From contig CALBHT010000086.1 of assembly GCA_937892755.1 (NCBI GenBank), positions 11 to 64,010 on the forward strand: a stretch of 64,000 nt of DNA, in the 5' to 3' direction. Source of the stretch: an uncultured Bacillales bacterium. GTDB taxonomy: Bacteria; Bacillota_I; Bacilli_A; RFN20; CAG-826. Positions 4,314-40,462 of the stretch are shown in pieces. Under the pieces are notes generated by a model. That model was not told the DNA's origin, ran no database searches, and saw only the letters and a program-made list of their open reading frames with translations. Both the position numbers and the translations under genes were made by a program. Numbering within the stretch: position 1 is the first letter of the stretch; every line of letters begins with the position of its first letter.

Positions 4314-4353
4314 AAACAAAAAACGAACCCACGCAAACGTACATGAGTTCGTA
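4314..4353 (-). terminator. Rho-independent terminator downstream of tRNA-Lys.
   Basis: Stem acgaac/gttcgt, followed by a U-tract on the minus-strand transcript. Confidence 0.45.
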
Positions 4354-4364: not shown

Positions 4365-4440
<76 letters not shown>

Positions 4441-4612: not shown

Positions 4613-6406
4613 CTAGGCTCTCGACTCAGCAAAGAAATAGAGAGGCTTGGCTTCAGAGTATCCGCAATATTCCTCGAATTTACTAGTCTTATAATATTCA
4701 AGATAGACACTACCAGCCTTCATTGTAAACGCACCGGTTGTAGAACTGGCAGCAACAGTCCAGTCCATGGTTCCGTTTTTAGCATTGGAGCTCGAGGAAT
4801 TAATAACGGTATAGTGCGTTCCAGATGTGTAGGCATATAAATAGTTGTCAGCGTCTGCGTCGTGAAACTTAAACGTTCCATCCGTATCACCTTTTTCAAG
4901 AGTGAACACAGTTCCATTGAATTCGTCGCCGAGTTTTTCATCGGTAACTTCATCTTCTCCTACGTTCAAGTAGTAAGAGTTTTGGATTGTGTTCACAAGG
5001 GTTTTAACAGTTCCACTAGCAGCATTGGCAATAACAAGTTTGGACCCTTCTCTCACTTCATCGATAGAAGTAACAAGTTTGTATACGGCTTTGTCAGCAG
5101 TCCCAGCAACAGTGATTGTCGCGGTCGCGACCTTGGTTTCGTCAGCAACGCTCTTGGCGGTGATGTGGGCTACGCCTTCTGCAACGCCGGTGACATAGCC
5201 ACTGCTTGTAACAGTAGCGACTTCTTCATTATCACTGATCCAAGTGACTGCTGGATTGGCTCCAGCTGGAGCGATGGTTGCATTCAATTGCATGCCGGCT
5301 CCGACTTTGAGGCTTCCAGTGGTTTCGGATAGCGTGATAGATTCGACTGCCTCATAAGTTGGAACAGCATTAGTAACAAACATGAGAATCGATGTGCTGC
5401 CATGCTCAGTATATCCAGCTGGATAAGCAGTCACGGTGTAACGGACTCCGTTTAAGAACGTAAATGGGCAATTGTAAGTTCCAATATTAATGGTTTCACC
5501 ATCAATTTTGAATGAGGTCTTTCCACTAGCAACCGTCGCAGTTGATGTGAAGGTATAAGGAACAACGTCTTTTGGTAAAATCGGAGAGGCTGTTTGTTTC
5601 CAGCCAGAGGTAATGGAAGAAGTCAATTCGACCGGCGTTTTGAGCGTTGGTTTCGCTCCAACACCAGCAGCAACCTTTAAGGTAGCGTGAGTCGACTTGT
5701 CCGTTGGGTTATAGCTGCCCATTTGGAACATTTGAGTGAAATAAGAGAAAATATCGCCGGTTACAGCAACATAATCGCCGATTCCAAAATTACCACTAGA
5801 AAGAAGGTCGTCTTTGCTATAAACGTAAACGGCACCCGTTCCGTCATCAATGATAAAGCCATTCAGATTGTCTTTAGCAACAATCGTGCCGTAAAGAGTA
5901 ACGCCATTTTGAGCAGTCGTGATGCTACCAATGGCCGTTTTTTCAATGTCGTTCACGGTGACATTCACTTCCGCTTTGACAGTCGGATCGGCTTCTAAGG
6001 TAGCGACAACCTTGGTCGAACCAGCCGCAACGCCGGTGATTAGTCCGGCCTTAACAGTAGCGATGGTTTCATTTTCCGATGTCCAAATGACGTTTTGATT
6101 CTCGCTATTGGAAACGGTTTTCGTGACGAGTTCTTTTCCACCAACTTTCAATGTGACGTTTGTCTTATCAAGTGTGATACTTGCTTTGAGCACTTCACTC
6201 GATTCGGAGCTCGACTCTCCACCGGCCTCGGAGCTCGATTCTGGCGTGACATTGCTCGACTCCTTGTTTCCTTCGCTTGTGGAAGGGGTTGGGGTCGCGC
6301 TGCTAGTTGGAGCAGTGCTTGTGTTATCCCCACCACCATTCGTGCAGCTTGCCATAACGAAAGCAGCCGCGATGGTAAGAGGAAGAAGTATGATCTTACG
6401 ATTCAT
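4613..6406 (-). CDS. Surface lipoprotein with two bacterial Ig-like (Big_2) domains.
   Basis: Signal MNRKIILLPLTIAAAFVMASC with a lipobox. The start was chosen at the ATG with AAGGAG 9 nt upstream, so the track ORF is longer. Big_2 motifs VIWTSENETIATVKAGLITGVAAGST and VTWISDNEEVATVTSSGYVTGVAEGVAHI are present. Confidence 0.7.
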   Translation of the reverse strand: MNRKIILLPLTIAAAFVMASCTNGGGDNTSTAPTSSATPTPSTSEGNKESSNVTPESSSEAGGESSSESSEVLKASITLDKTNVTLKVGGKELVTKTVSNSENQNVIWTSENETIATVKAGLITGVAAGSTKVVATLEADPTVKAEVNVTVNDIEKTAIGSITTAQNGVTLYGTIVAKDNLNGFIIDDGTGAVYVYSKDDLLSSGNFGIGDYVAVTGDIFSYFTQMFQMGSYNPTDKSTHATLKVAAGVGAKPTLKTPVELTSSITSGWKQTASPILPKDVVPYTFTSTATVASGKTSFKIDGETINIGTYNCPFTFLNGVRYTVTAYPAGYTEHGSTSILMFVTNAVPTYEAVESITLSETTGSLKVGAGMQLNATIAPAGANPAVTWISDNEEVATVTSSGYVTGVAEGVAHITAKSVADETKVATATITVAGTADKAVYKLVTSIDEVREGSKLVIANAASGTVKTLVNTIQNSYYLNVGEDEVTDEKLGDEFNGTVFTLEKGDTDGTFKFHDADADNYLYAYTSGTHYTVINSSSSNAKNGTMDWTVAASSTTGAFTMKAGSVYLEYYKTSKFEEYCGYSEAKPLYFFAESRA

Positions 6407-6537
6407 TTGCATTTTCTCCTTATGAAAATCATTTTGATGCACCTCCATTTTAACCCTTGTAGATATAGGAAGCAAACATTTCGGATGCTCAAGATGAAAA
6501 AAGGCCACCATAAAGGTGGCCAATTCGTCGTTACAGA

Positions 6538-6969
6538 TTATTTACGGGAAAGCGTCGCAAGATAATTGATATCTTTTTTCGCTGCATTCCGCAAAAGGAT
6601 CGAACGAACGAGATTCGTCGTCCCAATTGCAAGTAGTACCACGCCAAGGCTCAAGCAGAGCACGCAGATAACGAATTGGAGAGAGGCAAAATTAACGCCC
6701 GTAATCTTGTTTCTCTCTTTCTTGAGGGAAAGAAAGATAAAGAGGATGCCAACAATGAGAGAAATTGCACCTAAAACCTCGAAACAAAGGGCATTCTGAG
6801 ATAAATCATATCCCTTGATGTCCCGCTTATGAGCGGCTTGGGAATAGACAGAAACGTCTTCGGCGGCGATTTCATCCGCCCAATCCGTCCCCTCTTCATT
6901 TCCTTCCCAACCCAAAGTGAAGTCGGAAGTGTTGAAACGCGGTTTTAACGCTTTTTCCTTTTCTTTCAT
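6538..6969 (-). CDS. Small membrane protein with 2 predicted TM helices. Hypothetical.
   Basis: Hydrophobic segments LGAISLIVGILFIFL and FVICVLCLSLGVVLLAI. Co-directional and tightly packed after the nuclease gene. Confidence 0.55.
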   Translation of the reverse strand: MKEKEKALKPRFNTSDFTLGWEGNEEGTDWADEIAAEDVSVYSQAAHKRDIKGYDLSQNALCFEVLGAISLIVGILFIFLSLKKERNKITGVNFASLQFVICVLCLSLGVVLLAIGTTNLVRSILLRNAAKKDINYLATLSRK

Positions 6970-6983: not shown

Positions 6984-8978
6984 TTAATACGTTCCATTAA
7001 TGGTGACGTCTAAGGAAGACACAATGGTGATTTGATCACGATAATTCTTGCCAGAGGAAGAGATGTAATTCCCCCATATTCCGGTAAGACTTATCTTTTT
7101 GGCTTGGTATTCGGTGGTGATGAGGCGAGAAGCGATTGCCATTTCTTCTTCCGAATTCGCGTTGTTGTAGGTCAAAACGTTGCCTTCTTGGCCCTTATAG
7201 TTATACACATATTGGGCGCCTGCCGGATTGTAATAGTTGGTGCCTCCCGTATAGAACTTATAAGAATGGGAATTCTCCGTCCCGTACGTAACGAGGACGT
7301 TTTGATCTTCGACGATGCGGACCGCATTATCGGTGTTTTTCGTAGAAGTGGTCTTCGCGCCAAGCGAACCGAAGAAAACCAGTTTATTGCTGGAACAATA
7401 GAATGGATAGTGGGTATTGTAGCGATCCACTTCGTGGATACCACCATCGGTGAAAGTCGTATCCTGGAAGCAATAGACATCATCTTCGAAGGAGACAAGG
7501 ACATGATTCAGGTTATTATGATTGGTGCCGCCGCCATATTGGCTATATTGCTCTTGGGTGAGCTCAATTGGCTTAATCTTGTCCGCGGAAACAGATTTCA
7601 AAGAATCGATTTGGATATCGCGATATGGGTCAGCGTCAAAATCGTGATAAGAAACACCCATCATCTGAAGCGTGCCAGAATAAGAAGAAAGCACACCGAT
7701 GACGCTCACATAATCGCCAACCTTAATTGGGGTTTGAGCGTATGTGAAAACATACATGCCATACGCCTCAGGGAGAGAGCCATCAGCTGGTATATCATAT
7801 GACGGCTTATCTTGGAAATAGAAAGCACCATTGATTTTGCGCGTCACATAGCCAGAAAGCTTATAAAGCGTTTTGGAGCAATTTGTGTGCGTATCATCCA
7901 CGTCGAATAAAGGAGTGCTAAGAGTGTATGGTTTTGTAGTTGTAATTGTGACGGACTCGTAGACTTCCTTTAACGTCTTTTCAACTGGCGGGTTATCTTT
8001 CGAATAATAGAAATAGTTCGGATCAGGCATGCCGCTATATTGGTGGCGCTTATTGACTTGGGCGGATTTATTAGCGGCGTCAAAGGCCCAATAGAAATCC
8101 TCGCCCATATCTTCGACGGAGCCGATGCCTTGGGAGAATCCTTGGTAAACCATTTCGAGGTTCAAGCAGCGGAAATCATTGAGCTCTGGCTCTTCTTTTT
8201 CACTATACCAAACGTAAGCAAGGGAACGCTGATTGCCATCCGCCGTTGCCGATTTATTGTCATCCCCACGCGCCCAACCTTGGGATTCGAGAATGATATG
8301 CTTGGCCTTGGACAAGGTTTCTTTATTGAAAATAGAGGCGCTTTTCCCCCACTCTTCTAACTCGGAAGTGGATTCAGGTGTATCGATGCCTAAATAACGG
8401 ATTTTGACGGTGTAACCATAATTGAGCGTCGTAACGTGCGTGGTGTCACCATCAGCATAATTGAGGAATGCTTTATCCCCACTGTTATATTCGGTTTGCA
8501 TTTGCTCAACGCCATTCACGCGGAAATCAAGATATTCGGGCGCGTTCATGACGTTATAGAAAGTATCTTCATCGATATTGAGCTTAAAACGGTCAACCCA
8601 GTCAACGTCTTTGTCGACGACATAAGAGGCGCTGATTTTGTTTGTGCCTTTCTTTAGAAGGTAGGAGTAAAAACCATCCTCCCCTTTAGCGACGGTTTCG
8701 CCGTTCACTGTGACTTTGTCGACGAAGAAATCGGCGATTGGCTCGACTTTGAAGCGAAGCGTGTCGCCTTCTTCATACGAAGCATCTCCGTTTTCAACGG
8801 TCACTTTGCCATAATGGCTATTCGCCGTAAGATCCACCCACGTCGCCTTATTGCTTGTAGTAGAAGAAGAAATCGATGGGACGGAGCTTATAACGCTAGG
8901 TTCGCCATTGCCACCACAAGAAGCGAGTAAGCTCGTGGCGATGAAAGCGAAGAGTAAACTGAGTGCTTTTTTCTTCAT
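6984..8978 (-). CDS. Membrane nuclease lipoprotein with an SNase/thermonuclease-fold domain.
   Basis: Lipobox LLASCGG. Staphylococcal-nuclease signature KIRYLGIDTPEST...GNQRSLAYVWY...LNLEMVYQGFS. Confidence 0.75.
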   Translation of the reverse strand: MKKKALSLLFAFIATSLLASCGGNGEPSVISSVPSISSSTTSNKATWVDLTANSHYGKVTVENGDASYEEGDTLRFKVEPIADFFVDKVTVNGETVAKGEDGFYSYLLKKGTNKISASYVVDKDVDWVDRFKLNIDEDTFYNVMNAPEYLDFRVNGVEQMQTEYNSGDKAFLNYADGDTTHVTTLNYGYTVKIRYLGIDTPESTSELEEWGKSASIFNKETLSKAKHIILESQGWARGDDNKSATADGNQRSLAYVWYSEKEEPELNDFRCLNLEMVYQGFSQGIGSVEDMGEDFYWAFDAANKSAQVNKRHQYSGMPDPNYFYYSKDNPPVEKTLKEVYESVTITTTKPYTLSTPLFDVDDTHTNCSKTLYKLSGYVTRKINGAFYFQDKPSYDIPADGSLPEAYGMYVFTYAQTPIKVGDYVSVIGVLSSYSGTLQMMGVSYHDFDADPYRDIQIDSLKSVSADKIKPIELTQEQYSQYGGGTNHNNLNHVLVSFEDDVYCFQDTTFTDGGIHEVDRYNTHYPFYCSSNKLVFFGSLGAKTTSTKNTDNAVRIVEDQNVLVTYGTENSHSYKFYTGGTNYYNPAGAQYVYNYKGQEGNVLTYNNANSEEEMAIASRLITTEYQAKKISLTGIWGNYISSSGKNYRDQITIVSSLDVTINGTY

Positions 8979-8997
8979 AAATCATTCTCCTTTGGAC

Positions 8998-10593
8998 TTA
9001 ATAGGTTGGTTTCGTGGCTTTTACGGTGTTGTTATAGGCGTCTTGGAAAGCCTTATCCACGGATTTGCCTTGGGCGATGATATAAGTAAGAATCTGCCCA
9101 ACTTCATCACGCGCTTTCTCAGAACCAAGGAAGACCGCGGAAGTCATGTATTTGTCGCGAAGAGATGCCGTCGCGGCAGGGATGGCGTATTTCAAATCCG
9201 CGTCTTTTTGAGCAATCCATTCTTTGTATTCGTTTGTCTCGAAAGAAGAAACGCGGACTGGATCATAGGAGTTCTGCATCGCGAGTTTGGCATTATTCAC
9301 TGGGTTTGCGAGCTCTTTATAGAAGAGCCAGGCACCCTTATGAATATACGGATTGTCGTTATTGAAGAAGCAGATAGAAGGACCTTGTTGAATGTATTTC
9401 GGCGTTTTTCCTTCTGGATAAGGAACTGCGGCTAAACCAACGCGGAAATTGCTAGAAACGTTATAGCTGCTGCCGCCCGTTGAACCGATGCTCATCGCCG
9501 ATTGTTTGGCCGTGAAATAGTCGTTTGTATATTTCCCACCCAATAGCCCTTTCGTGATGAAAAGGCCATCTTGATAAAGCTTTACGACGTCGCTTACGAA
9601 CGCTTTCGCTTCTGGGTTATTGAATTTGATATGATCTTTTGGCTTAGAGATATTCTCGTTAGTCGTGTATTCAATACCTCTCATCGCGAATTGCGAAATA
9701 AGGAGGTTCGAGTCACTATCATAACCAACAGGGTAGAATTCGTTCGTCACTCCTTCTTTTTTGAGGTCTTCCTTCATCTTTTTGGAGACGGAAACCATTT
9801 GCTCCCAAGTGACTGGGACATCATAAACGTATCCATCATGCGCTTGCAGCCATGTTTTTAAGGCATTAAGCTGTTCGTCCGTGGACGAAGATGCGCTAGC
9901 AGGTTGACGAAGCGCCTCATATTCGGAATTGGAAGCGAATTTCTTGCTGTTTGCGGGGTTATCGCCAAAGAAATAGTTCATGTTGTAGTACATAATCTCG
10001 GTGGATTTGTACATTGGCATGGACCACTGTCCTTTGAACTGATAATCGCTGCCTTCCTCATAAAAAGCGGGGACAAAGTCTTTGATATCGTCTTCGCTAT
10101 AACCAAAATCCGCATCTTTGATGAAATTGTCCAAACGGAGAATCGCGCTATGCTCAATGCGCTGTCCCATATAGACGGAGAAGTTATCGGGGTATCCCAT
10201 CGTCAAAGCAGGGATTTCATTCGAAGCGAGTTTTTGCTTAATCGCGTCAGAAAGACCTTCGTATGTGCCAGCAATTTTTTCCTCAACGACTTTGTATTTC
10301 CCTTGGTATTTATTGTTGAAACCATCCATGATTTTGCCCAAGTTCGTGCTCTTCTCATGACCTAAGCAAGACCAGAATTTGATAGTGACTTCACTCGATG
10401 GATCATCCCTAGGAAGAACAGCGTCGACCACATCGACCTGCTCGAACTCTGAGGTTTCTCCATTAGAATTAGAGGAGTTAGGGTTGCCTCCTTGAGAGGA
10501 CTCTTCTGCTTCGTTCCCTCCGCAGCTAGCGAGGGTAAGGGCGCTGAGCACCCCCATGAGGGTGAGGGTCAATAATTTTTTCTTGTTTTTCAT
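8998..10593 (-). CDS. ABC transporter solute-binding lipoprotein (carbohydrate-type, family 1).
   Basis: Lipobox LTLASCGG. Its size and its position upstream of two MalFG-type permeases and a MalK-type ATPase support the call. Confidence 0.75.
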   Translation of the reverse strand: MKNKKKLLTLTLMGVLSALTLASCGGNEAEESSQGGNPNSSNSNGETSEFEQVDVVDAVLPRDDPSSEVTIKFWSCLGHEKSTNLGKIMDGFNNKYQGKYKVVEEKIAGTYEGLSDAIKQKLASNEIPALTMGYPDNFSVYMGQRIEHSAILRLDNFIKDADFGYSEDDIKDFVPAFYEEGSDYQFKGQWSMPMYKSTEIMYYNMNYFFGDNPANSKKFASNSEYEALRQPASASSSTDEQLNALKTWLQAHDGYVYDVPVTWEQMVSVSKKMKEDLKKEGVTNEFYPVGYDSDSNLLISQFAMRGIEYTTNENISKPKDHIKFNNPEAKAFVSDVVKLYQDGLFITKGLLGGKYTNDYFTAKQSAMSIGSTGGSSYNVSSNFRVGLAAVPYPEGKTPKYIQQGPSICFFNNDNPYIHKGAWLFYKELANPVNNAKLAMQNSYDPVRVSSFETNEYKEWIAQKDADLKYAIPAATASLRDKYMTSAVFLGSEKARDEVGQILTYIIAQGKSVDKAFQDAYNNTVKATKPTY

Positions 10594-10615
10594 ATTGGAA
10601 TTATCTCCTTAAAAA

Positions 10616-11545
10616 TTATCCTTTTATACCAGCGCGGGAAACGCCACGCATAATATACTTTCTGAAGAAAATGAAGACGAGCAAAAGCGGGACCGTAACA
10701 ACCACGGTCGCAGCCATCTGCGCCCCATAATCATCATAATTTTCGGCCGTAGAGAAGGTTTCACGCAAGCCGTTCGTGATAAGATAAAGCTCTTTATGCC
10801 CGGTTGTGATGAGGTTTGGCCAGACATAAGCGTTCCACGCGCCCATAAGCTTGAGAATGAAAATTGTGGTCAAGGTTGGCATCGCCAAAGGAACCATGAC
10901 TTTCCACAAATACTGCCAATCCGACTTTCCATCGACTTTTGCCGCTAGATAAAGCTCGTTCGGAATCTGCTTGAAATTCTGGCGGAGCAAATAGATGTAA
11001 AAAATGGAAATCATGAACGGGATGATCATTGCTGTATAGGAAGCGATCGCGTTCGTCCCACCCGTTAAGCCGAGGAGAGAAACGGAAATGTAGTTCGAGA
11101 TGACCATCATTTCCCCTGGAATCATCATCGTGGAAAGAAGAATCCCAAAGAGGAAGTCGCGACCCTTAAATTCAAGGCGCGCAAATGCAAAGGCGGCGAA
11201 AATGGTTGTGATTAACGTCCCAATTGTTGAGAAAATGCCAACAATCAAGGTGTTTTTGAGCAACACGCCAAAATTGAGGCGGCTCATCGCAGAAGCATAG
11301 TTATCGAAGCGGAATACCTCTGGCCACATCGTCGGGACAAGACGCTTGATTTCCGCACCGCCCTTCAAAGATGTGATAAGCATCCAATAAAAAGGGAAAA
11401 TCATAATAAGGGCGAAAACCGTCAAAAATAAGTAAATGAAAACCAAACTGACGATCGAAGCGATTCTCCCCAATTTCTCTTTTTTCTCTGTCGATAGTTT
11501 CTCATCGGCGAGAACAAGGTGCAATTCTGGATAATTGTTTTCCAT
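10616..11545 (-). CDS. ABC transporter permease (MalG/UgpE-like).
   Basis: Six TM helices. EAA loop YLAAKVDGKSDWQYLWKVMVPLAMP. Confidence 0.85.
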   Translation of the reverse strand: MENNYPELHLVLADEKLSTEKKEKLGRIASIVSLVFIYLFLTVFALIMIFPFYWMLITSLKGGAEIKRLVPTMWPEVFRFDNYASAMSRLNFGVLLKNTLIVGIFSTIGTLITTIFAAFAFARLEFKGRDFLFGILLSTMMIPGEMMVISNYISVSLLGLTGGTNAIASYTAMIIPFMISIFYIYLLRQNFKQIPNELYLAAKVDGKSDWQYLWKVMVPLAMPTLTTIFILKLMGAWNAYVWPNLITTGHKELYLITNGLRETFSTAENYDDYGAQMAATVVVTVPLLLVFIFFRKYIMRGVSRAGIKG

Positions 11546-11547
11546 AA

Positions 11548-12492
11548 TTAATAGTGAACCCTCCGTTTCGAAACCTGGAATTGAATCCCAGTGAAAATCA
11601 AAATGATGATGAATAGAATCACCGCCGCGGCGCAGGCATACTGTACGAAATTGTCGCTAATCTGCTCATAGATGAAATAAACAATGGTATGCATGTTTCC
11701 TGGGCCCGTGTTGATATCGAAAGCGCCACCGTTCGTGCCGAACAAGCCGATGACGGAATTGTATTCTTTGAACGCTCCGATGAAAGAAGTGATGGCAATA
11801 TACATGATTTGTGGAGACAAAAGAGGGACCGTGACTTTCATGACGGTTTTGAAGTGAGATGCCCCATCCACTTTCGCCGCATCATAATATTGCTTATCGA
11901 TGTTTTGAAGCCCACCTAAGAAAATGAGAATCTTGTAAGGCAAGGAATGCCAAACGATGTAAAAGCAAATCGCGAAGAACGCAGACCAATAATTGACTCT
12001 TTCCCCTGTGGCGATATTCATCGAAATCCAAGGATGGCCTTGAATCCCAAACAATGCATTGAATAATCCGTACTGTGTATCAAAGATAACAGAGAAGACC
12101 ATACCGATCGCAATCGCATTGGTGACATAAGGCAAAAAGAAGACAGTTTGGAAGAATTTCTTAAAAGCCTTAATCGAATTCAAGCCAATTGCAATCGCAA
12201 GGGCCAAAATAATGGAGGCCGGAACGGTGACGAAAGTTAGTAAAAGAGTGTTTGGCAAAGCAGTCACCATGACTTCATCAAAGAAGGAGATGCCATCTTC
12301 GTTCCCATTTGGCGAAAGAATTGCAAGATAGTTCCCAAATGTGAAGCCATCACTCGTCCCTAAAACGTAATCGTAATCCTTCAAGAAGGAAACAACGAAC
12401 GTGTTAAGAATCGGATAAAAGGTGAAAACGGAAAGGAGGATGATGACTGGTGCTAAATATAGCCAGGCTTTCCAGTTATTCTTACTTTCCAT
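11548..12492 (-). CDS. ABC transporter permease (MalF/UgpA-like).
   Basis: EAA loop YYDAAKVDGASHFKTVMKVTVPLL. The start was reset to the internal ATG (MESKNNW) with GAGGG upstream, which removes an 83-nt overlap with the ATPase. Confidence 0.8.
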   Translation of the reverse strand: MESKNNWKAWLYLAPVIILLSVFTFYPILNTFVVSFLKDYDYVLGTSDGFTFGNYLAILSPNGNEDGISFFDEVMVTALPNTLLLTFVTVPASIILALAIAIGLNSIKAFKKFFQTVFFLPYVTNAIAIGMVFSVIFDTQYGLFNALFGIQGHPWISMNIATGERVNYWSAFFAICFYIVWHSLPYKILIFLGGLQNIDKQYYDAAKVDGASHFKTVMKVTVPLLSPQIMYIAITSFIGAFKEYNSVIGLFGTNGGAFDINTGPGNMHTIVYFIYEQISDNFVQYACAAAVILFIIILIFTGIQFQVSKRRVHY

Positions 12493-13969
12493 AAACGCCC
12501 TCGAATTCGATTCTTTCTTCGGTATCGTGGTCAAAAACAAAGAGTTTATTCGGACGGATGCCAAATTTCATTTTGCCAACCTTCGCTTGGATATCGCTAT
12601 CGATGATGATCTTGATTTCGTCCCCCATGAACGAATCGTGCTTCGCTAAAAGGGACATATCGCGCCCCATCGTGACAATCGCGGAAACGTCGAGTGTCAA
12701 AACGCGTTTGGAGGCTGGTGTATGCTCATCGGCTAAGAAGCCTTCTGGGCGGATGCCGACATAAACTGGCTTATCGTCCCCCACGAATTGCGAAGAAGTG
12801 CAAATGACTTCGTCCCCGATGCGGAGCGCTCCACCCCCAATCACGCCTTCAAAAACATTGATTGGCGGCGTGCCGAGGAATTTAGCAACGAAGAGGTTCT
12901 TCGGGTTCTTGTAAACTTCCTGTGGAGCGTCTTCTTGCATTTTGACGCCGAGTTTCATAACGACGATGCGGTCAGAGATGGACATTGCCTCTTCTTGGTC
13001 GTGAGTAACGAAAATCGTGGTGATACCGGTTTCACGTTGAATGCGGCGAATCTCTTCACGGGTTTGTAAGCGAAGGCGGGCGTCGAGGTTGCTCAAAGGC
13101 TCATCGAGAAGCAAAACGCGTGGCTTCTTGACAAGGGCGCGGGCAATCGCGACACGTTGCTGCTGTCCACCCGAGAGCTCGCTTGGCTTACGGGAAAGGT
13201 ATTCATCAATCTGAACGAGACGGGCCGTTTCTTGGATGAGGCCATCCATTTCATCCTTCGTGAGTCTTCTTTTTTCTAGAACTGGGCTACCACCGACGAG
13301 GATTTCGCCTTTTTCGTTGACGGTTTGGCCTTTCGCGGTAAGTTTTTCCATTTCCTTATCGATTGATTGCTGGAGCTCGTTGATTTTTGCTTCCTTGAGA
13401 GCTTCGAGTTCCTCTCCACTTGGAACCAAATGAAGACCGTATTTGAAGATGGTTTTCGCTAAGCTCGAAACGATATGATATTCGAAAACGAGTTTGCGGA
13501 TGGATGCTTCTTTGGAGATTTTCCCCTCGAATGTCGACGAACGGATGATCTCAACGATTCTATCCGTTTCGTTTGTGAGTAACTCAATAAGTTTTTTCGA
13601 ATGGATGATTAAGTAATCTTTCTTGTTCGTTTCAACCCTGAGGTTCGTCAAAGGGAAGCGAACGTTGTCATAAACGGTCATATGCGGATACAAAGCATAG
13701 TTTTGGAATACCAAGCCGATTCCGCGCTTCTCTGGCGTTAAGTTTGTGACATCGTCATCGCCAAACCAAATTTCGCCAGACGTTGGGGCTTTTAAACCAG
13801 CGATCATATAAAGCGTGGTTGATTTTCCGCATCCAGAAGGACCTAGTAACCCAAGCAATTCGCCGTCCTTGATATCCAAATTGAAATCATTGACCGCGGT
13901 CGTGTCTGGGATGTTCTTCTGGGGGTTACCCGGGAACGTCTTCGTAAGATGTTTGATTCTAATTTCCAT
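12482..13969 (-). CDS. ABC transporter ATP-binding protein (MalK/UgpC-like) with a ~130-aa insertion.
   Basis: Walker A GPSGCGKST, signature LSGGQQQRVAIARAL, Walker B LLLDEPLSNLDA. A long charged coiled-coil-like insert sits between the Q-loop and the signature. Confidence 0.9.
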   Translation of the reverse strand: MEIRIKHLTKTFPGNPQKNIPDTTAVNDFNLDIKDGELLGLLGPSGCGKSTTLYMIAGLKAPTSGEIWFGDDDVTNLTPEKRGIGLVFQNYALYPHMTVYDNVRFPLTNLRVETNKKDYLIIHSKKLIELLTNETDRIVEIIRSSTFEGKISKEASIRKLVFEYHIVSSLAKTIFKYGLHLVPSGEELEALKEAKINELQQSIDKEMEKLTAKGQTVNEKGEILVGGSPVLEKRRLTKDEMDGLIQETARLVQIDEYLSRKPSELSGGQQQRVAIARALVKKPRVLLLDEPLSNLDARLRLQTREEIRRIQRETGITTIFVTHDQEEAMSISDRIVVMKLGVKMQEDAPQEVYKNPKNLFVAKFLGTPPINVFEGVIGGGALRIGDEVICTSSQFVGDDKPVYVGIRPEGFLADEHTPASKRVLTLDVSAIVTMGRDMSLLAKHDSFMGDEIKIIIDSDIQAKVGKMKFGIRPNKLFVFDHDTEERIEFEGVYGK

Positions 13970-14171
13970 AGAGTTAGGGGACTCCTTACATCATTCAATA
14001 AGTCTATTATTCTATAAGTTTGAGAAATCTTTTACAAACAATTCCAAAACGCATTCTCTTTCGCCTCGAAACCAAAGCGACAAACGGCTCGATTATTGCG
14101 AAGAAAAGTATCTTTTTCATCATCGCTTTTTGCCTTTAGAAAATCTTCGCTCAAACGGCAATGCGTTTTAA

Positions 14172-15146
14172 TCATTTGGATAAATGGAAGTCCGGATTTT
14201 CAAGACGAGCCGCTTCTTTGAGCCGCTTCGCCTCAAGATAATCCTCGACATTGAGGTAAACGGTATCGTAAGTGACGTCCACGACGTATTGGGAGAAAAG
14301 ATAATCCACGAGATTTTCTTTTCGTTTGCTCCAAAAAAGCATTCCCGTGGAAAGGGCGAAAGGAATCAAAAACGCGAAAAAATCCAAAAGGTAATAAACG
14401 AAATAGATGAAAAGGAAGCGAAACAGGTATTGTTTTGCTTTGATATTGAGTGCATTACTCCCAATAAGGGCTAGATGTAACAAATGTTTACCAAGAGTTT
14501 GTCGCCCCCGTTTCCAAATCACGAGCGGGAAGAACAAATAAAAGAGACAAATCGAAGCAGTCAAGCAAAGAAAGAATTCGATTGCCCCATAAAGAAATAG
14601 CTTTCTTGACGCTTCAGCGTAATCCCCGGTTTTGAAAAGCTCTGCTAAGGCGTAATCCTTTGTTTCCGTGACATAAAAATCATAAAGATAATTGGGGTTC
14701 ACATTGTTTTCCTTGATGGTTCCATCGCTATTCCTAGAAAATAAGAAAACATCATCTTGGCGAGCTTCTATTTTTCGTTTGTTGTATTCTTCGCGAATTG
14801 ACGCATTGGAGAATTTGCCATTCTCATAGAAACCATCAAGTCTCATCGAAAGAAAATCTTTTTTGTCGCCATACGTGAGGAGCGGGCAAGATTCACTTGC
14901 GGTGTATTCGTAAATCGCTTGCCCATCCTCCATATAAAGACCGGATTCTTTTTGGAGTTCCGTCCGGATTGCGGTTTGTTCTTTAGCAAACGGGAGAGAG
15001 GAAGCGGCCATATTGACCAAAGAAAATAGCGTCATCGATAGAAGAATCGTGAGGACGAAATCAATCAAAAAAGCAAGCGCTCTTTTTCCGCGGTGTGCTG
15101 GATGATATACCAGTTCTTCTTGCTTCGCTTTTTGTGTTTCTACCAT
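14172..15146 (-). CDS. RDD-family membrane protein with a large extracytoplasmic insert.
   Basis: N-terminal RGKRALAFLIDFVLTILL. C-terminal GRQTLGKHLLHLALIG plus TM helices. Confidence 0.55.
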   Translation of the reverse strand: MVETQKAKQEELVYHPAHRGKRALAFLIDFVLTILLSMTLFSLVNMAASSLPFAKEQTAIRTELQKESGLYMEDGQAIYEYTASESCPLLTYGDKKDFLSMRLDGFYENGKFSNASIREEYNKRKIEARQDDVFLFSRNSDGTIKENNVNPNYLYDFYVTETKDYALAELFKTGDYAEASRKLFLYGAIEFFLCLTASICLFYLFFPLVIWKRGRQTLGKHLLHLALIGSNALNIKAKQYLFRFLFIYFVYYLLDFFAFLIPFALSTGMLFWSKRKENLVDYLFSQYVVDVTYDTVYLNVEDYLEAKRLKEAARLENPDFHLSK

Positions 15147-15147
15147 G

Positions 15148-16377
15148 CTAAGCCTCTTTCTTTTCCTCTAGCGGAGTGCCTTTTTCTAATTCTTCGGTGT
15201 CTTTAACGAGGAGACGAGCGGCAAGCTCAGGCAAGCCTTGACGATTTTTCCCAAAAATCAAAGTGAAAACGGAAATGATGGCCATTAGCAAAGACGCTAG
15301 AAGAAGATAAAGGAAGCGAAAATAACCAAAGGAAACAAAGAGGAGCCCCCACTGTGAAAAGAAAAAGAGCACAAGAGCAGGTATAGAAGAATACATTAAT
15401 AAGCGAAGTGAGCTCTTCACGAAATAAGAATAAAACTTAGGAGAGGTTTCTTCTTCGGTAGAATAAGCGAGCTTATGAAGATGGTAACCTAGCGTCACCT
15501 TTCGCTTGCTAATAAGTGGGAACAGTTCACAAAGTGCGAAAGCAAAAACGTAGGAGAAGAAAACGGAAAGCAAATATCCCAAAGAGTAGCTATTATACGC
15601 AATAGAGAATGCCTTTTGATGGGATAGATATGGCTCGTAGTGGTTTTCCACTTCTTTGATAAAAACATTTTCGGCAGAAAGGAAGGCTTTTTGTAAAGAT
15701 AAATAATAAATAGAGCCCCCCGCATCCCCGTATACGAGATATTCCGCGATGTTTTTCGCTTTTTTGAAATCCAATTGTTGATAAACGGATAGCTCCTCCG
15801 TGACTTTCGTAAAATAGTCGCGATAATCCGCCTTCGCGTACGTAAATGCGGTTGAGTAAAGGAAATCTTCTTTATTCGCTTGGTAATCGACATCGTTATA
15901 AACATAAGAAGAAAGGGAGGCATGAGCAGGTTTGAACGAATAATAATAATAAGAAATGCGATCATGAAGATAGGTTCCGCTTTTCTCAAGGAAAGTATCT
16001 TCGATGGAGACATCTTTTGCCGAAGCATGGGTCAATGGATAAGGCACATTGTTCAAGTAATACGCGGTTTGGGTAAGCGTGATGATATATTCCTTTGCCA
16101 GATCGTTTAACGGCGTGAGCTTTTTGCTTTCGCTATCATAAGGCTGCAAACGTGTCTCGCTCACGACTTGCCGCAATATCGTCGTTTCCTCGGTGATTCT
16201 ATTTTTCTCTTCTTTTGTGGAGGGTAAAGCACCAAAGATTGGTAAACCCGCCAAAGCGAAAACAAGCATGGACAATACGAAAGTAATTCCATAGTCGCAT
16301 AACGAAGACAAAAAAATCTTTCCTTTTTTGGCTAACGTATTGTTCTTATAGGGAGAATAAAGAATCTGTTTATCCAT
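15148..16377 (-). CDS. RDD-like membrane protein paralog.
   Basis: Same architecture. N-terminal basic segment KKGKIFLSSLCDYGITFVLSML, central soluble region, C-terminal TM cluster with RKVTLGYHLHKL. Confidence 0.5.
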   Translation of the reverse strand: MDKQILYSPYKNNTLAKKGKIFLSSLCDYGITFVLSMLVFALAGLPIFGALPSTKEEKNRITEETTILRQVVSETRLQPYDSESKKLTPLNDLAKEYIITLTQTAYYLNNVPYPLTHASAKDVSIEDTFLEKSGTYLHDRISYYYYSFKPAHASLSSYVYNDVDYQANKEDFLYSTAFTYAKADYRDYFTKVTEELSVYQQLDFKKAKNIAEYLVYGDAGGSIYYLSLQKAFLSAENVFIKEVENHYEPYLSHQKAFSIAYNSYSLGYLLSVFFSYVFAFALCELFPLISKRKVTLGYHLHKLAYSTEEETSPKFYSYFVKSSLRLLMYSSIPALVLFFFSQWGLLFVSFGYFRFLYLLLASLLMAIISVFTLIFGKNRQGLPELAARLLVKDTEELEKGTPLEEKKEA

Positions 16378-16421
16378 CGATAATAATCTTAACCGAAAGA
16401 AGCAAAAACTTGAATGAAAGG

Positions 16422-17690
16422 CTACTCCTCTTTCTTATTCTCTTCTGCCCCGAATATCTCCTCACGTCCCTTTTTGATGGACTCGATGTCGATGACTTCC
16501 ACTTCTTTCACATTGGCTTCCGAAACGGCAGCATCGCGACTAGATTCGCCCGATAGATGACGTTCCTCGTCATCGGCGTTCTCGTAAATCTCGCTCTTTT
16601 TACGCTCCACGACGACCGTTTTTCCCAAGCGATCTTGAAGAGCCAAGGAGTTCGGGTTCCGTGCCCCAACCATAGTGATATAGTCGATCAAACAAACAAG
16701 GAACAGCAGGAAAACGAGATATAGATTCGAAATTGGAGCGATTACGTAAATAGAAGCGATAAGAAACATCACTCCTGAACGAATCAGTTTGCTAACGGGT
16801 CTCACGCGATACCCGTCTTGCCCCACAAGGCACGTACCAAACGCGAGCTTTCCGATCGTCTGACCATTTTTCATAAGAACCGGGATAAGGAAAAAGAAAG
16901 CGAAGGAAAACGGCAAATAACAAATGAGTCGGATTGCCCAATTCGTCATTTTGGAATGCTCGCTCATCGTTTGGTAATAGGGTTGCTTGGTAAGCACTTG
17001 ATTGGCTTGGACGAAAAGTGACTTATCCGCGCCATAGAAATAGGAATTCAATTTGTTGATAAGCTCCGCTTTCGCCGTCTCATCGTTGCCTTGAATCACG
17101 GCTTCGTATTGGCTTTGCAAAGTGGCAGGCAAGGAGAAATCGACCACCCCCGTCGCCTCATTGACCGCATAACGATAATACTTGCTTTCTCCATACAATT
17201 TGCTTTCGTCTTTCGTGATCTCCTCTTTTGTGAGATTTTTCGTAGAGTCATAATCAGGAAGTCCCAAAACGATGGTATGAAAATATTCCCGGCTATATTT
17301 GATCCCATTTTCTCCTTCGCGGTTTTCAATTCGCCAATCATTTGGACAGAACTCGTTATAAAAATAATCCAAAGAAGAATAATAAATCGGATAGAGAGAT
17401 GGCGCTTTGTTCCCAGCGCTCGATTCTTGGACATAGTAAGAAGTCGCCGCGACTTGAATAGATGTTTTGCTTTCGTCCGCGTATTCGAAAAGCTTCGAAT
17501 CGGTTGCAAAAGCGTAGAAATTGATAGTATCCGCTTTGGAACCCATGCTCTCAGCGAGGACATTCGTGCCTAGCGTGTAAAGCAAAGTGAGATAAAGAGC
17601 GAACGTGAGAACAAAATCGAGAGCGAAAGCCCCGATGCGCTTTCCTAAGGAAGCGATATGAATTGTGTCTTTCATTTTTTCCATATGCAA
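16422..17690 (-). CDS. RDD-family membrane protein paralog.
   Basis: N-terminal LGKRIGAFALDFVLTFAL. C-terminal NGQTIGKLAFGTCLVG...LALQDRLGKTVVV, the classic RDD C-terminal motif. Confidence 0.6.
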   Translation of the reverse strand: MHMEKMKDTIHIASLGKRIGAFALDFVLTFALYLTLLYTLGTNVLAESMGSKADTINFYAFATDSKLFEYADESKTSIQVAATSYYVQESSAGNKAPSLYPIYYSSLDYFYNEFCPNDWRIENREGENGIKYSREYFHTIVLGLPDYDSTKNLTKEEITKDESKLYGESKYYRYAVNEATGVVDFSLPATLQSQYEAVIQGNDETAKAELINKLNSYFYGADKSLFVQANQVLTKQPYYQTMSEHSKMTNWAIRLICYLPFSFAFFFLIPVLMKNGQTIGKLAFGTCLVGQDGYRVRPVSKLIRSGVMFLIASIYVIAPISNLYLVFLLFLVCLIDYITMVGARNPNSLALQDRLGKTVVVERKKSEIYENADDEERHLSGESSRDAAVSEANVKEVEVIDIESIKKGREEIFGAEENKKEE

Positions 17691-20270: not shown

Positions 20271-20485
20271 TTTTGAACCTCCTCGCTTTTAAAGCGTTAT
20301 ATATCTCTACTCTTGCGGAATACAGCAAAATGTCAACATTTTATTTTGTTTTGTTCAATATTTTTTAAAAAGCAGTGCTTACGCTATTTTTTAGACATTT
20401 GTAAAGAATAAATAAGGTTATTTAATGATTCCATTGAAGAATCTGAAATAGATATTCATAAAGATCTATTTATGAAATGACAGAA

Positions 20486-20520
20486 TAAAAAAATTCCTGT
20501 TTTCGAAACCAAAACAGGAA
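20486..20520 (-). terminator. Rho-independent terminator downstream of the metalloprotease gene.
   Basis: 10-bp stem ttcctgtttt/aaaacaggaa, followed by a U7 run on the minus strand. Confidence 0.6.
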
Positions 20521-20560
20521 TCAACGAAAAAATCGCGAAAATGGATTCGTGATTGTTTCT

Positions 20561-22882: not shown

Positions 22883-22973
22883 CTTTTTCCCTCCGACAAC
22901 AAATTGAACTATTTATTGTCAATGAAAAACAAGTGAAGGGCAAGGAGAATAAGAAAAAGAAAGTGCTTAGCCT

Positions 22974-24713: not shown

Positions 24714-24770
24714 CATTTTCACCTCGCGAATAAACCTTATTATGCGTAGAACAACCACTTTTTCAAGAAT

Positions 24771-24797
24771 AATAAAAACCTCCCCGCTAGAGGGAGG
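24771..24797 (-). terminator. Terminator downstream of the 229-aa membrane protein gene, which is the last gene of the opp transcription unit.
   Basis: Stem cctccc/gggagg plus a U-tract in the minus-strand sense. Confidence 0.5.
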
Positions 24798-24805
24798 TCA
24801 CTCAT

Positions 24806-31373: not shown

Positions 31374-31481
31374 AGTGGTTAACGAAAGAATTTTACTCGC
31401 TTTATCTAAAAAGATAAACGCTTAGTTTTCATTGAAAGGAAAAAGCCCCGCGAATAAGCGGAGCTTTCTACGTTTTTTCTT

Positions 31482-36936: not shown

Positions 36937-36964
36937 GATTATATAGGAAAGGAAAATACATATT

Positions 36965-38782: not shown

Positions 38783-38885
38783 TCTCTTTTCGCTTCCTCA
38801 AAAGCTCGCCATTCATCCTGACGGGCTTTTTTATTTCAGTTACCAATTTCCTTAAATAATGATTGAAAGAAAATAAATCCATTGC

Positions 38886-40256: not shown

Positions 40257-40284
40257 TTCTTGATTTATCGTTTTCTTCTCTCTA

Positions 40285-40318
40285 AAAGCGGATTGCTTTG
40301 CCTTCCGCTTTTTTTATA
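40285..40318 (+). terminator. Rho-independent terminator of the lipoprotein gene.
   Basis: Stem agcgga/tccgct followed by a T8 run. Confidence 0.6.
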
Positions 40319-40421: not shown

Positions 40422-40462
40422 GCAATAAAACATAACCATGTATTTCCAAAATGGTGTTATAA

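Follow-up and report, generated by a model that had tools for sequence, protein, structure and literature searches.

A 64,000-nt stretch of DNA from an uncultured Bacillales bacterium, referred to here as the window, encodes a surface nuclease next to the components of an ABC importer, which raises the question of whether the two work together and what the transporter would then carry. The best reading is that the locus is a cassette of the mhp379/MAG_5040 type in an RF39-like bacterium with the standard genetic code, likened to its mycoplasma counterparts by component set, by proposed role, and by weak model matches of its solute-binding protein (SBP). A mycoplasma nuclease–transporter cassette would thus occur in a new lineage, where it offers a guess at the transporter's substrate.

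The window has a GC content of about 45%, and its 35 main open reading frames (ORFs), five of which stop at TGA, cover 91% of it under code 11; the ORFs ended by TGA and the code 11 tiling indicate that the host uses the standard code. The lineage clue in the original prediction leads, in keeping with the GC content and TGA stops, to RF39-like or 'Candidatus Enteromonas'-like reduced Bacilli and not to Mycoplasma itself. The host is a gut bacterium related to mycoplasmas.

The operon occupies the minus strand from 13969 to 6538, and its features, with the next gene downstream, are as follows.

14009–14037, minus strand: promoter-like site (TTGTAA-17 nt-TAGAAT), from a consensus scan and sequence reading; a consensus match only
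12482–13969, minus strand: UgpC/MalK-like ABC ATPase, 495 aa (Pfam ABC_tran 1.4e-36 in two stretches, OB_MalK 2e-5)
11548–12492, minus strand: UgpA/MalF-like permease A, 314 aa (BPD_transp_1 3.9e-18; best NCBIfam match UgpA, 3.9e-20)
10616–11545, minus strand: UgpE/MalG-like permease B, 309 aa (BPD_transp_1 2.4e-19; best NCBIfam match UgpE, 6.9e-30)
8998–10593, minus strand: SBP lipoprotein, 531 aa, from the UgpB clade within CUT1 (SBP_bac_8 7.7e-16)
6984–8978, minus strand: surface nuclease lipoprotein, 664 aa (Pfam SNase 9.9e-10)
6538–6969, minus strand: membrane protein with hydrophobic segments, 143 aa, last gene before the terminator
6497–6521, minus strand: intrinsic-terminator-like hairpin (GGCCACC-TTTAT-GGTGGCC plus TTTTTT), from a scan and sequence reading
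4613–6406, minus strand: surface lipoprotein, 597 aa, with two Big_2 Ig-like domains (1.3e-21) and a putative OB-fold

The gene order originally proposed, from a MalK-like ATPase through two permeases and an SBP lipoprotein to a nuclease lipoprotein, was borne out, with all five minus-strand ORFs lying where predicted. The nuclease had been placed at the end of the operon; it is instead the penultimate gene, with the 143-aa gene 14 nt downstream and then the terminator. Intergenic gaps of at most 19 nt had also been claimed, and those measured from ATPase to nuclease were −11, 2, 22, and 19 nt, so that only the 22-nt gap departs from the claim. Each operon gene is preceded by a Shine-Dalgarno sequence. 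The promoter-like site sits in the 202-nt gap 5' of the ATPase gene, and the single, clean terminator of the operon region (a 7-bp stem with six GC pairs) lies 17 nt past the point where the 143-aa gene's stop codon ends the operon's coding sequence. The nuclease and transporter genes are probably co-transcribed.

The ATPase carries Walker A (residues 43–50), signature (265–269), and Walker B (285–290) motifs and a C-terminal MalK-type OB regulatory domain, and its best NCBIfam match is UgpC (6.6e-103, under the cutoff). An insert of about 110–125 aa that separates the Q-loop region from the LSGGQ signature is missing from the ATPases of distant cassettes (354–377 aa). Permease A, with several hydrophobic (TM-like) segments, starts at the ATG at 12492, overlapping the ATPase stop by 11 nt; the mechanical ORF opens at a TTG at 12564.

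The 143-aa protein, which had no Pfam match, has two hydrophobic (TM-like) segments (approximately 58–85 and 88–126). Among 80 loci, 47 have its gene directly after that of the nuclease, and these 47 all belong to the RF39-like set. The 597-aa lipoprotein gene lies downstream, beyond the terminator, and is separated from the 143-aa gene by 131 nt. Its product showed weak OB-type matches (RMI2, 5.6e-4; stress_OB_fold, 4.7e-3) and a BLASTP match to the nuclease's OB region (E 0.001) that hhalign did not confirm; its homologues P0287 and P0299 contain PF01336. Proteins with aBig_2, Lamin-tail, and OB-fold domains are the products of the gene that succeeds the nuclease gene in distant cassettes. 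The 597-aa lipoprotein is a candidate nucleic-acid-capturing accessory, and our confidence in its membership in the system is low.

Domain analysis of the nuclease confirmed the expected SNase domain with a score above the gathering threshold (39.3 versus 21 bits) and located the three motifs on which the original prediction relied: YLGIDTPE at residue 195 (window 8373–8396), GNQRSLAYVWY at residue 248 (8205–8237), and LNLEMVYQGFS at residue 272 (8133–8165). A signal peptide and a lipobox (L-A-S-C), whose Cys21 is invariant across the family, are followed by a disordered linker (residues 22–43), an Ig-like beta-sandwich (44–121; window 8616–8849), a helical region (122–170), the SNase domain (171–320; window 8019–8468), an OB-like barrel (366–445; window 7644–7883), and a beta-rich C-terminal domain (446–664). 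The OB-like region gave weak OB-type structural matches to the ExoVII large subunit, LysRS, and tRNA_anti-like proteins, and the corresponding region of distant homologues matched DUF5689. The AF2 model (pLDDT 81.7) superposes on S. aureus nuclease (Foldseek TM ~0.8, E 1e-7); together with the HMM E-values and the 486 nuclease homologues found, those listed being mostly full-length, this excludes chance and marks a real locus. Residues D176, D178, R194, D199, T200, E202, and R251 align with SNase D19, D21, R35, D40, T41, E43, and R87, and all seven catalytic and Ca2+-binding residues are invariant in 18 family members, contrary to what a nuclease-dead sequence would show. On these residues, the protein is predicted to be an active enzyme.

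Conservation of the cassette was assessed by a synteny scan with one genome per species, seeded solely with nuclease peptide motifs; a locus counted as informative when its upstream sequence spanned 5.5 kb or more. The ATPase–permease–permease–SBP–nuclease order was collinear on one strand in all 63 of the 63 informative loci. Conserved cassettes included those of distant nucleases (28–40% identity) from metagenome-assembled genomes labelled Izemoplasmatales, Acholeplasmatales, Tenericutes, Erysipelotrichaceae, and Clostridia. That lineages so divergent retain one gene order points to a common function.

The SBP likewise begins with a signal peptide and a lipobox (L-A-S-C; Cys24, invariant across the family), and the anticipated SBP_bac_8 domain was recovered. 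The description of the importer as 'sugar-type' holds only in the sense that it falls within the CUT1 superfamily, as the SBP and permeases belong to the Ugp (phosphate-ester) branch and not to the maltose/sugar one. In NCBIfam, each of the four transporter proteins matched a Ugp protein best, and 23 of the 27 SBP family members hit UgpB; the Ugp matches were all well under the curated cutoffs (UgpB, 49 versus 411 bits). A search of the PDB with the SBP family profile gave 13 matches at E ≤ 1e-3, all UgpB-clade chains headed by a G1P/G3P-binding UgpB, with no sugar-binding SBP at this threshold. We consider very unlikely an ordinary CUT1 sugar/oligosaccharide importer beside a non-nutritional nuclease that would attack DNA of the host or of competitors, extracellular traps, or biofilm matrix. 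Such a pairing would fit the Pfam families, which are generic 'sugar' ABC families, the annotation of homologues as 'multiple sugar transport system substrate-binding protein', and the mycoplasma SNases, which are documented cytotoxins implicated in extracellular-trap degradation (PMC9740415); it is opposed by the profile result, by the 63/63 gene order, and by an invariant phosphate-binding tetrad. A defensive role of the nuclease is compatible with a nutritional one.

This tetrad, Tyr/Ser/Ser/Tyr in the UgpB clade, is reported missing from glucose binders, and a Trp188/Trp191 clamp is said to define G1P/G3P binders (PMC12718374). The tetrad of the SBP is Y111, S197, S371, and Y443, which do not vary in 27/27 family members or in the SBPs of 14/14 distant cassettes. 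In place of Trp188/Trp191 and Glu88, the SBP has Y291, N296, and P135, a substitution seen throughout the family (27/27) and in 12–14 of 14 distant members. Gly303 of UgpB is kept, and Arg393, a glycerol-hydroxyl ligand, may correspond to R495, which was aligned in one comparison and in an insert state in another. These data bear on a genuine Ugp system importing sn-glycerol-3-phosphate (G3P) or glycerophosphodiesters, with the nuclease as a co-regulated phosphate scavenger whose products are not transported. The best NCBIfam matches, the top-ranked UgpB, the tetrad, and Gly303 speak for it, as do the annotation of the homologous M. pneumoniae transporter as a putative G3P system and the poor growth of MPN133 mutants on glycerol (PMC3178575, PMC4766277); the NCBIfam matches, the profile ranking, the M. 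pneumoniae data, and the possible R495 counterpart of Arg393 also count against nucleic-acid scavenging. We nevertheless judge a genuine Ugp system unlikely, given scores far under the cutoffs, the replaced clamp, and an unfailing SNase linkage that is no known trait of Ugp operons.

Structural comparison of the SBP model (AF2, pLDDT 87) placed a dinucleotide (UpG)-binding protein of T. thermophilus in the top 18 Foldseek positions (E 7e-20), followed by UgpB, whose E-value was only some tenfold higher. The same protein, bound to uridylyl-3'-5'-guanosine, was the best single-sequence PDB match. Its eight ligand-site residues probed by mutation (Y56, F79, N81, S127, Y224, T240, Y246, and Q274) correspond to Y111, Y134, D136, S197, Y355, S371, Y377, and Q403 of the SBP, all identical or conservative and family-invariant; Y355, Y377, Q403, and D136 are common to the dinucleotide binder and not to UgpB. 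The SBP also weakly matched the Mycoplasma lipo_P68 (2e-8; 16/27 family members) and Lipoprotein_X (MG185/MG260; 0.015) models. Its ligand is predicted to be a phosphate-bearing nucleotide or dinucleotide.

Bacterial salvage mostly imports nucleosides rather than nucleotides, and an enzyme encoded elsewhere might dephosphorylate the products outside the cell for an SBP that binds nucleosides. The aromatic pocket residues could stack bases, and a gene for a nucleoside hydrolase (IU_nuc_hydro) is found in a close relative, roughly 8 kb away from the cassette. This arrangement nonetheless appears distinctly improbable: the four phosphate-coordinating residues are invariant in close and distant cassettes, which makes a phosphate-free ligand hard to explain, the conserved cassette includes no nucleotidase or phosphatase gene, either in the window or in the distant loci examined, and the nucleoside ABC importers known so far are of another family, the CUT2/BmpA type.

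The 63/63 synteny and the SBP ligand pocket strongly back a functional coupling of nuclease and transporter. With moderate confidence, we propose, in line with the original prediction, a nucleic-acid scavenging operon in which extracellular digestion precedes nucleotide or dinucleotide import. The lipid-anchored, Ca2+-dependent staphylococcal-type nuclease would cut extracellular DNA and RNA on the cell surface, with the Ig-like and OB-like domains flanking its catalytic domain probably holding the polymer. SNase chemistry yields 3'-mononucleotides and short oligonucleotides or dinucleotides, which would be the products here. The SBP, with its phosphate tetrad and with aromatic and Gln/Asp residues instead of the glycerol clamp, would capture phosphate-bearing fragments, from which we infer the identity of the transported ligand, and would hand them to the two permeases for ATPase-driven import, allowing nucleotide and phosphate salvage. 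SNase products bear a 3'-phosphate and UpG has no terminal phosphate, which counts against this proposal, as do the narrow Foldseek margin over UgpB and the origin of the Thermus ligand described below.

Among known systems, the Thermus dinucleotide SBP is the closest structural match (TM 0.79–0.80). Both proteins belong to the UgpB clade and have the phosphate tetrad, but identity is 17–19%, and the window SBP is a lipoprotein about 125 aa longer. We know of no nuclease linkage of the Thermus gene. The Thermus structures (PDB 7C0F/7C0K/7C0L and mutants) are those of Chandravanshi et al. (FEBS J 2021, cited in PMC12718374). In them the ligand was 'endogenously bound', having been carried through purification from the expression host, and any physiological role it has is putative.

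Of the named families, UgpBAEC of E. coli, M. tuberculosis, and Phaeobacter, an ABC importer of G3P and glycerophosphodiesters, comes nearest to the four transporter subunits, and UgpB has the SBP fold and phosphate-binding residues in common with the window SBP. The window proteins differ in their far lower scores, in the missing Trp clamp and glycerol-holding Glu, in a larger, lipid-anchored SBP, in the long ATPase insert, and in the constant nuclease linkage. S. aureus Nuc has the SNase fold, Ca2+ ligands, and catalytic Arg/Glu/Arg in common with the window nuclease, in which its Y85, K84, Y113, and Y115 are not kept. Bacillus subtilis YhcR is a multi-domain extracellular SNase, and such enzymes also pair SNase with OB-type nucleic-acid-binding domains. 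Nuc and YhcR-type SNases rely on secretion or sortase, whereas the window nuclease has a lipid anchor, no 5'-nucleotidase domain, and a gene inside a transporter operon.

The mycoplasma precedent named in the original prediction proved sound: MAG_5040, mhp379, MPN133, MHO_0730, and MbovNase are SNase lipoproteins adjoining an ABC transporter. The operons comprise mhp379 (M. hyopneumoniae), MAG_5030(P80)-MAG_5040-MAG_5050-5070 (M. agalactiae), and MslA-MGA_0676 (M. gallisepticum), with MPN133-136, MG186, MHO_0730, and MBOV_RS02825 as further members. The pairing has been interpreted as a nucleotide-uptake machine (PMC3585158, PMC4045577, PMC9740415); the component set is polycistronic in M. agalactiae, and the SBP-like lipoprotein MslA binds DNA in both single- and double-stranded form (PMC3585158, PMC4045577). 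The order in M. agalactiae is SBP–nuclease–ATPase–permeases, in contrast to that of the window, and the window nuclease is much longer than MAG_5040 (664 versus 390 aa), adding Ig-like, OB-like, and C-terminal domains. The window also differs in its host's standard code and ~45% GC and in the extra conserved 143-aa membrane protein. As in the window, adjacent genes of the mycoplasma operons encode an SNase lipoprotein that keeps its catalytic residues, a large SBP-like lipoprotein, a single ATPase of the Ugp/MalK type, and a pair of permeases, and the role proposed for them matches, namely that external nucleic acid would be digested and then imported.

The minus strand between positions 13969 and 6538 of the window carries six closely spaced genes, listed here in transcriptional order:

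12482-13969, minus strand: ABC ATPase, 495 aa (Pfam ABC_tran/OB_MalK, above curated cutoffs)
11548-12492, minus strand: permease A (Pfam BPD_transp_1, above curated cutoff)
10616-11545, minus strand: permease B (Pfam BPD_transp_1, above curated cutoff)
8998-10593, minus strand: solute-binding protein (SBP), 531 aa (Pfam SBP_bac_8, above curated cutoff)
6984-8978, minus strand: nuclease, 664 aa (Pfam SNase, above curated cutoff)
6538-6969, minus strand: 143-aa protein, acidic in its N-terminal part and containing two TM-like hydrophobic segments (no family match)

The successive intergenic gaps are -11, 2, 22, 19, and 14 nt, and each gene is preceded by a Shine-Dalgarno-like sequence. A consensus scan found a promoter-like site (TTGTAA-17-TAGAAT) within the 202-nt gap upstream of the ATPase gene, and a hairpin with a T-run, of the textbook terminator type, lies 17 nt past the 143-aa gene. 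On the basis of the short gaps, the single promoter-like site, and the single terminator, the six genes are predicted to form one transcription unit. The original prediction of a nuclease lipoprotein within an ABC importer operon was borne out by the ORFs, Pfam matches, and lipoboxes, and by the three peptide motifs it had quoted, which are present at nuclease residues 195, 248, and 272. The gene layout and operon signals call for two small corrections: one gap measures 22 nt where all had been put at 19 nt or less, and the nuclease gene, described as the last of the operon, is penultimate in the predicted unit, with the 143-aa gene at its end.

The SNase domain of the nuclease matched Pfam PF00565 with an E-value of 9.9e-10 (39.3 bits against a cutoff of 21). 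Its N-terminus consists of a signal peptide and a LASC lipobox, with Cys21 invariant in the family, and the SBP likewise begins with a signal peptide and an L-A-S-C lipobox whose Cys is invariant in its own family. Pairwise alignment placed D19, D21, R35, D40, T41, E43, and R87 of S. aureus nuclease, in which D21, D40, and T41 are Ca2+ ligands and R35, E43, and R87 are catalytic, at D176, D178, R194, D199, T200, E202, and R251, and all of the mapped residues were invariant across 18 aligned homologues (43-88% identity). An AlphaFold (AF2) model of the nuclease (mean pLDDT 81.7) had S. aureus nuclease as all of its best Foldseek matches (TM 0.77-0.81, E ~1e-7). The original prediction was to be abandoned if the SNase domain was missing or its active site dead; the family model matched above cutoff and no catalytic or Ca2+ residue was missing on alignment, so neither situation was found and a nuclease-dead protein was ruled out. 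By sequence and model, the protein is an SNase-family member with an intact predicted active site. It differs from S. aureus nuclease, which is far smaller, in its multi-domain architecture:

behind the lipobox: disordered linker (AF2 model)
residues 44-121: Ig-like beta-sandwich (AF2 model)
between the Ig-like domain and the SNase core: helical region (AF2 model)
residues 171-320: SNase core
residues 366-445: plausible OB-like barrel (AF2 model topology, weak Foldseek OB matches)
after the OB-like barrel: beta-rich C-terminal domain (AF2 model)

The OB assignment is plausible from the model topology, from weak Foldseek matches to OB-fold nucleic-acid-binding proteins in a viral library, and from DUF5689 matches in distant nuclease homologues. 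Foldseek gave no domain assignment for the C-terminal half, as the PDB list was filled by SNase variants. A nuclease profile searched against 1.84 billion cluster representatives identified 1,396 relatives at E ≤ 1e-3, of which 93 reached E ≤ 1e-30; approximately 25 relatives had the full-length architecture, and a larger group of 400-500 aa had the SNase-plus-OB core in common. An exact-sequence search with the nuclease gave no match, and a neighbouring protein had a 100%-identical counterpart on ENA metagenome contigs of 71-177 kb. In three cassettes from Acholeplasmatales/Tenericutes-labelled MAGs, the nuclease N-terminus showed a PASTA-domain match (E 2e-5 to 5e-3) at the site occupied by the Ig-like domain in the window nuclease; this match was above the Pfam cutoff in L068:9476-10924 and L060:9482-11044 and below it in L076:9542-11029.

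Conservation of the gene order was evaluated by searching the GTDB set, represented by a single genome for each species, for two peptide patterns, both derived from the nuclease alone; this gave 152 relatives, with 80 loci retained. The loci were compared by tblastn with the window proteins and were considered informative when they extended at least 5.5 kb upstream of the nuclease. The order ATPase-permease A-permease B-SBP-nuclease was present on a single strand in all 63 of the 63 informative loci, and the 17 truncated loci showed as much of it as their contigs hold, the sole exception being L066, a locus with permease matches downstream of the nuclease. The order was also kept where the nucleases were only 28-40% identical, in MAGs labelled Izemoplasmatales, Acholeplasmatales, Tenericutes, Erysipelotrichaceae, and Clostridia. 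Other features were limited to the RF39-like subset, namely the 143-aa membrane protein (47 loci), the RDD genes upstream (38 loci), and an insert in the ATPase, the distant ATPases being 354-377 aa long. In those 47 loci the 143-aa gene lies right behind the nuclease gene, as it does inside the predicted transcription unit of the window. Preservation of the order across such divergence is strong evidence that the nuclease and transporter share a function, and we consider it likely that they work together. The strict five-gene order across many reduced Bacilli goes beyond the original prediction: the cassette is not restricted to mycoplasma pathogens and is intact in every informative locus of many uncultured reduced Bacilli, whose MAGs came from gut, rumen, and environmental samples.

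Several loci showed additional genes. Between permease B and the SBP, the distant cassettes L067, L070, L073, and L074 have one or two extra ORFs (471-505 aa), which by size and position may be additional binding proteins. In L081, an 84%-identical relative, an inosine-uridine-preferring nucleoside hydrolase gene (IU_nuc_hydro, L081:20111-21040) lies approximately 8 kb downstream of the nuclease gene; the matching position falls just beyond the window.

All four transporter subunits had Ugp proteins as their best family match, with scores far below the family cutoffs. A profile built from 27 SBP family members matched 13 PDB sequences at E ≤ 1e-3, all of the UgpB clade (Phaeobacter UgpB, E. 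coli UgpB, and a Thermus thermophilus protein that was also the best single-sequence PDB match of the SBP). Because the family profile matches only UgpB-clade structures, a plain sugar importer was rejected as the favoured interpretation. In Foldseek, the AlphaFold SBP model (pLDDT 87) had the Thermus protein as its top 18 matches (E 7e-20, TM 0.79-0.80), with UgpB ranking approximately tenfold behind, a small margin. The Thermus structures are of an ABC-transporter dinucleotide-binding protein with uridylyl-3'-5'-phospho-guanosine bound, a ligand (UpG) that was co-purified. Many SBP homologues bear a precomputed match to PF27319, a family that may have been defined recently for precisely this group of binding proteins.

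The phosphate is held by a pair of Tyr and a pair of Ser residues common to UgpB, the glycerophosphocholine binder of M. tuberculosis, and the U3G binder from Thermus; glucose binders are without these residues, and the Trp188/Trp191 clamp is restricted to G1P/G3P binders (PMC12718374). Adopting the phosphate tetrad from that study (Tyr64, Ser143, Ser266, and Tyr342 in Phaeobacter numbering), we mapped the pocket positions via the SBP family HMM. The tetrad corresponds to Y111/S197/S371/Y443 in the SBP and was invariant in all family members (27/27) and in the SBPs of distant cassettes (14/14). Trp188 and Trp191, which together with Glu88 hold the glycerol moiety in G3P/G1P-binding UgpB, are replaced by Y291 and N296, and Glu88 by P135. 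UgpB Gly303 is retained as G404, and the counterpart of Arg393 is ambiguous, being R495 in the profile-versus-PDB alignment and an insert state in the family-HMM mapping. The eight ligand-site residues mutated in the Thermus structure series (Y56, F79, N81, S127, Y224, T240, Y246, and Q274) correspond to SBP Y111, Y134, D136, S197, Y355, S371, Y377, and Q403, with five identities and three conservative replacements, and the SBP counterparts were invariant or at least 96% conserved in the family. Y355, Y377, Q403, and D136 are common to the SBP and the dinucleotide binder but not UgpB.

With the tetrad kept and the clamp and Glu88 replaced, the pocket looks made for a non-glycerol phosphate ester, and it looks similar to a known dinucleotide site. 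Nucleases of the staphylococcal type yield 3'-mononucleotides and dinucleotides, so the expected enzyme products match the predicted ligand of the SBP. The pocket residues thus point away from glycerol-3-phosphate and sugars as cargo and toward nucleotides or dinucleotides, a second result that goes beyond the original prediction. From homology, we lean slightly toward a phosphate-bearing (di)nucleotide; the narrower reading, in which the cassette would serve specifically to import dinucleotides or 3'-phosphorylated oligonucleotides of very short length, is tentative and falls a little short of even. If true, this would be the first CUT1/Ugp-branch ABC system with the direct product of a co-encoded surface nuclease as its physiological cargo, and the SBP signature (the Tyr/Ser/Ser/Tyr tetrad plus Y134, D136, Y291, N296, Y355, Y377, and Q403) would define a new specificity subfamily spanning RF39, Izemoplasmatales, Acholeplasmatales, and, by extension, the mycoplasma P80/MslA/MG185 lipoproteins. 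The prediction that the SBP binds phosphate-bearing nucleotides or dinucleotides, not glycerol-3-phosphate, can be tested at the bench; its confirmation would place a widespread but wrongly annotated 'sugar transporter' in a substrate class and help to account for the way in which RF39-type gut bacteria live on nucleic acids of dietary, host, and microbial origin.

A surface protein capturing nucleic acid beside the cassette would fit, and one candidate gene lies past the terminator:

4613-6406, minus strand: lipoprotein of 597 aa, 131 nt downstream of the 143-aa gene, with a pair of Big_2 domains and weak signals of an OB-fold

This gene is syntenic in close relatives. BLASTP matched its product to the OB region of the nuclease over 62 residues (E 0.001), and profile-profile comparison of the two proteins with hhalign aligned only the signal peptides and did not reproduce the OB match; we assign the lipoprotein to the nuclease-importer system with low confidence. 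In three distant cassettes, the nuclease gene is followed by one for a giant protein, 1,129-1,773 aa in length (L068:11074-16395, L076:11061-15737, and L072:10992-14381), carrying Ig-like atrophied Big_2 repeats, with a Lamin-tail domain in L068 and L076 and an OB-fold nucleic-acid-binding domain in L076 only. By analogy with the Big_2 lipoprotein, these may be nucleic-acid-capturing surface proteins. Just downstream of the lipoprotein gene are a tRNA-Lys(CTT) gene (4365-4440, minus strand) and then a 13-bp hairpin with a T-run (4323-4352, minus strand).

On the other side of the cassette, three tandem RDD-family membrane proteins of 324, 409, and 422 aa are encoded directly upstream (14172-17690, minus strand), and no terminator-like site was found between the RDD genes and the ATPase gene. 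In 38 of the 80 related loci, the first RDD gene is likewise found upstream of the ATPase gene and shares its strand. Next comes an Opp-like operon for a peptide ABC transporter (17769-34067, minus strand) in which several members are unusual; it comprises two SBP_bac_5 proteins of very large size (833 and 861 aa), an OppC-like permease of 692 aa, two oligo_HPY ATPases, and three interposed ORFs (773, 594, and 229 aa) without a Pfam match. The cassette ATPase (12482-13969, minus strand) has a predicted helical insert of approximately 110-125 aa (residues ~113-236) between the Q-loop region and the LSGGQ signature, and an Opp-type ATPase (26741-28234, minus strand) is also split by a long insert, so that ABC_tran spans residues 50-333. 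With the cassette ATPase insert present across RF39-like loci, insert-bearing ABC ATPases look like a lineage trait. The GC content dips to 38% at 40001-42000, against approximately 45% elsewhere, coinciding with an ATPase_2/AAA_14 ORF (40438-41973, plus strand) flanked by several ORFs without a Pfam match (34825-40256 and 42148-48129); this region may be an acquired island. The window also encodes the following large putative surface proteins and elongation factors:

64-2811, minus strand: collagen-triple-helix plus InlB-B-repeat protein, 915 aa, putative surface protein
50141-53467, plus strand: BspA-type LRR protein, 1,108 aa, putative surface protein
54767-58897, minus strand: BspA-type LRR protein, 1,376 aa, putative surface protein
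58914-60749, minus strand: Big_2 protein, 611 aa, putative surface protein
61091-62308, minus strand: EF-Tu
62433-63974, minus strand: EF-G, C-terminal four-fifths (the gene runs past the window end, and its GTG 'start' is an artefact of the mechanical ORF call)

The GC content of 44-46% throughout the window, the main ORFs tiling 91% of it under code 11, and the use of TGA as a stop ruled out a Mycoplasma origin. Homologues came nearly all from metagenome-assembled genomes labelled 'Candidatus Enteromonas', 'Candidatus Onthovivens', 'Bacilli/Bacillales bacterium', 'uncultured Mollicutes', or 'Erysipelotrichaceae', which we take to be the RF39 group of reduced Bacilli. Reduced-genome bacteria rely on external nucleotide sources, and the rest of the window, with its Opp-type operon, three RDD proteins, collagen-repeat, BspA-LRR, and Big_2 proteins, and many ORFs without a Pfam match, fits a transporter-dependent organism rich in surface proteins.

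Mycoplasma surface SNases adjoining ABC transporters have reportedly been proposed as a nucleotide supply line since 2007, although to our knowledge the molecule carried by these nuclease-linked transporters has never been shown. The precedent named in the original prediction, an SNase lipoprotein beside an ABC importer, agrees with the literature (PMC3585158, PMC4045577, PMC9740415). In M. agalactiae, the gene for the SNase lipoprotein MAG_5040 has that for P80 (MAG_5030), an SBP-like lipoprotein, on one side and those for an ATPase and two permeases on the other; all five are co-transcribed, the arrangement is kept across the M. hominis group, and import of nucleotide precursors was proposed by the authors (PMC3585158). 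The M. bovis and M. gallisepticum homologues were termed a putative nucleotide transporter operon, and the SBP-like lipoprotein MslA binds to DNA, both single-stranded and double-stranded (PMC4045577). The same genomic context was listed for mhp379, MPN133, MG_186, MHO_0730, and MbovNase (PMC9740415). MPN134-136 were drawn as a putative G3P transporter (PMC3178575), and MPN133 mutants grew poorly on glycerol (PMC4766277); the substrate is not settled even for the mycoplasma transporters, and the (di)nucleotide reading, if true, would answer what they carry. Our literature searches yielded no description of the cassette beyond Mycoplasma, nor any paper that connects it with the dinucleotide-binding protein; the Izemoplasma DNA-degradation locus of Wasmund et al. 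is built around a phosphate ABC transporter, with no sign in the passages covered of its being this cassette.

The window cassette shares with the mycoplasma systems an SNase lipoprotein and an adjoining Ugp/MalK-type ATPase with two permeases on the same strand, and it has an adjoining SBP lipoprotein. The SBP showed sub-threshold matches to the mycoplasma surface lipoprotein family lipo_P68 of NCBIfam (2.2e-8, 33 bits against a cutoff of 200), a model also matched by 16 of the 27 family members and by 6 of 8 SBPs from distant cassettes, and to Pfam Lipoprotein_X (MG185/MG260; E 0.015), which is consistent with remote homology to mycoplasma lipoproteins. The gene order differs from that of the mycoplasma operons, the nuclease is much larger and multi-domain, the 143-aa protein is an extra component, and the host, unlike mycoplasmas, uses the standard genetic code. 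These comparisons support the window locus as a mycoplasma-type nuclease-plus-importer cassette in an RF39-like gut bacterium; the cassette itself would not surprise a specialist, and its predicted ligand makes an old question directly testable.
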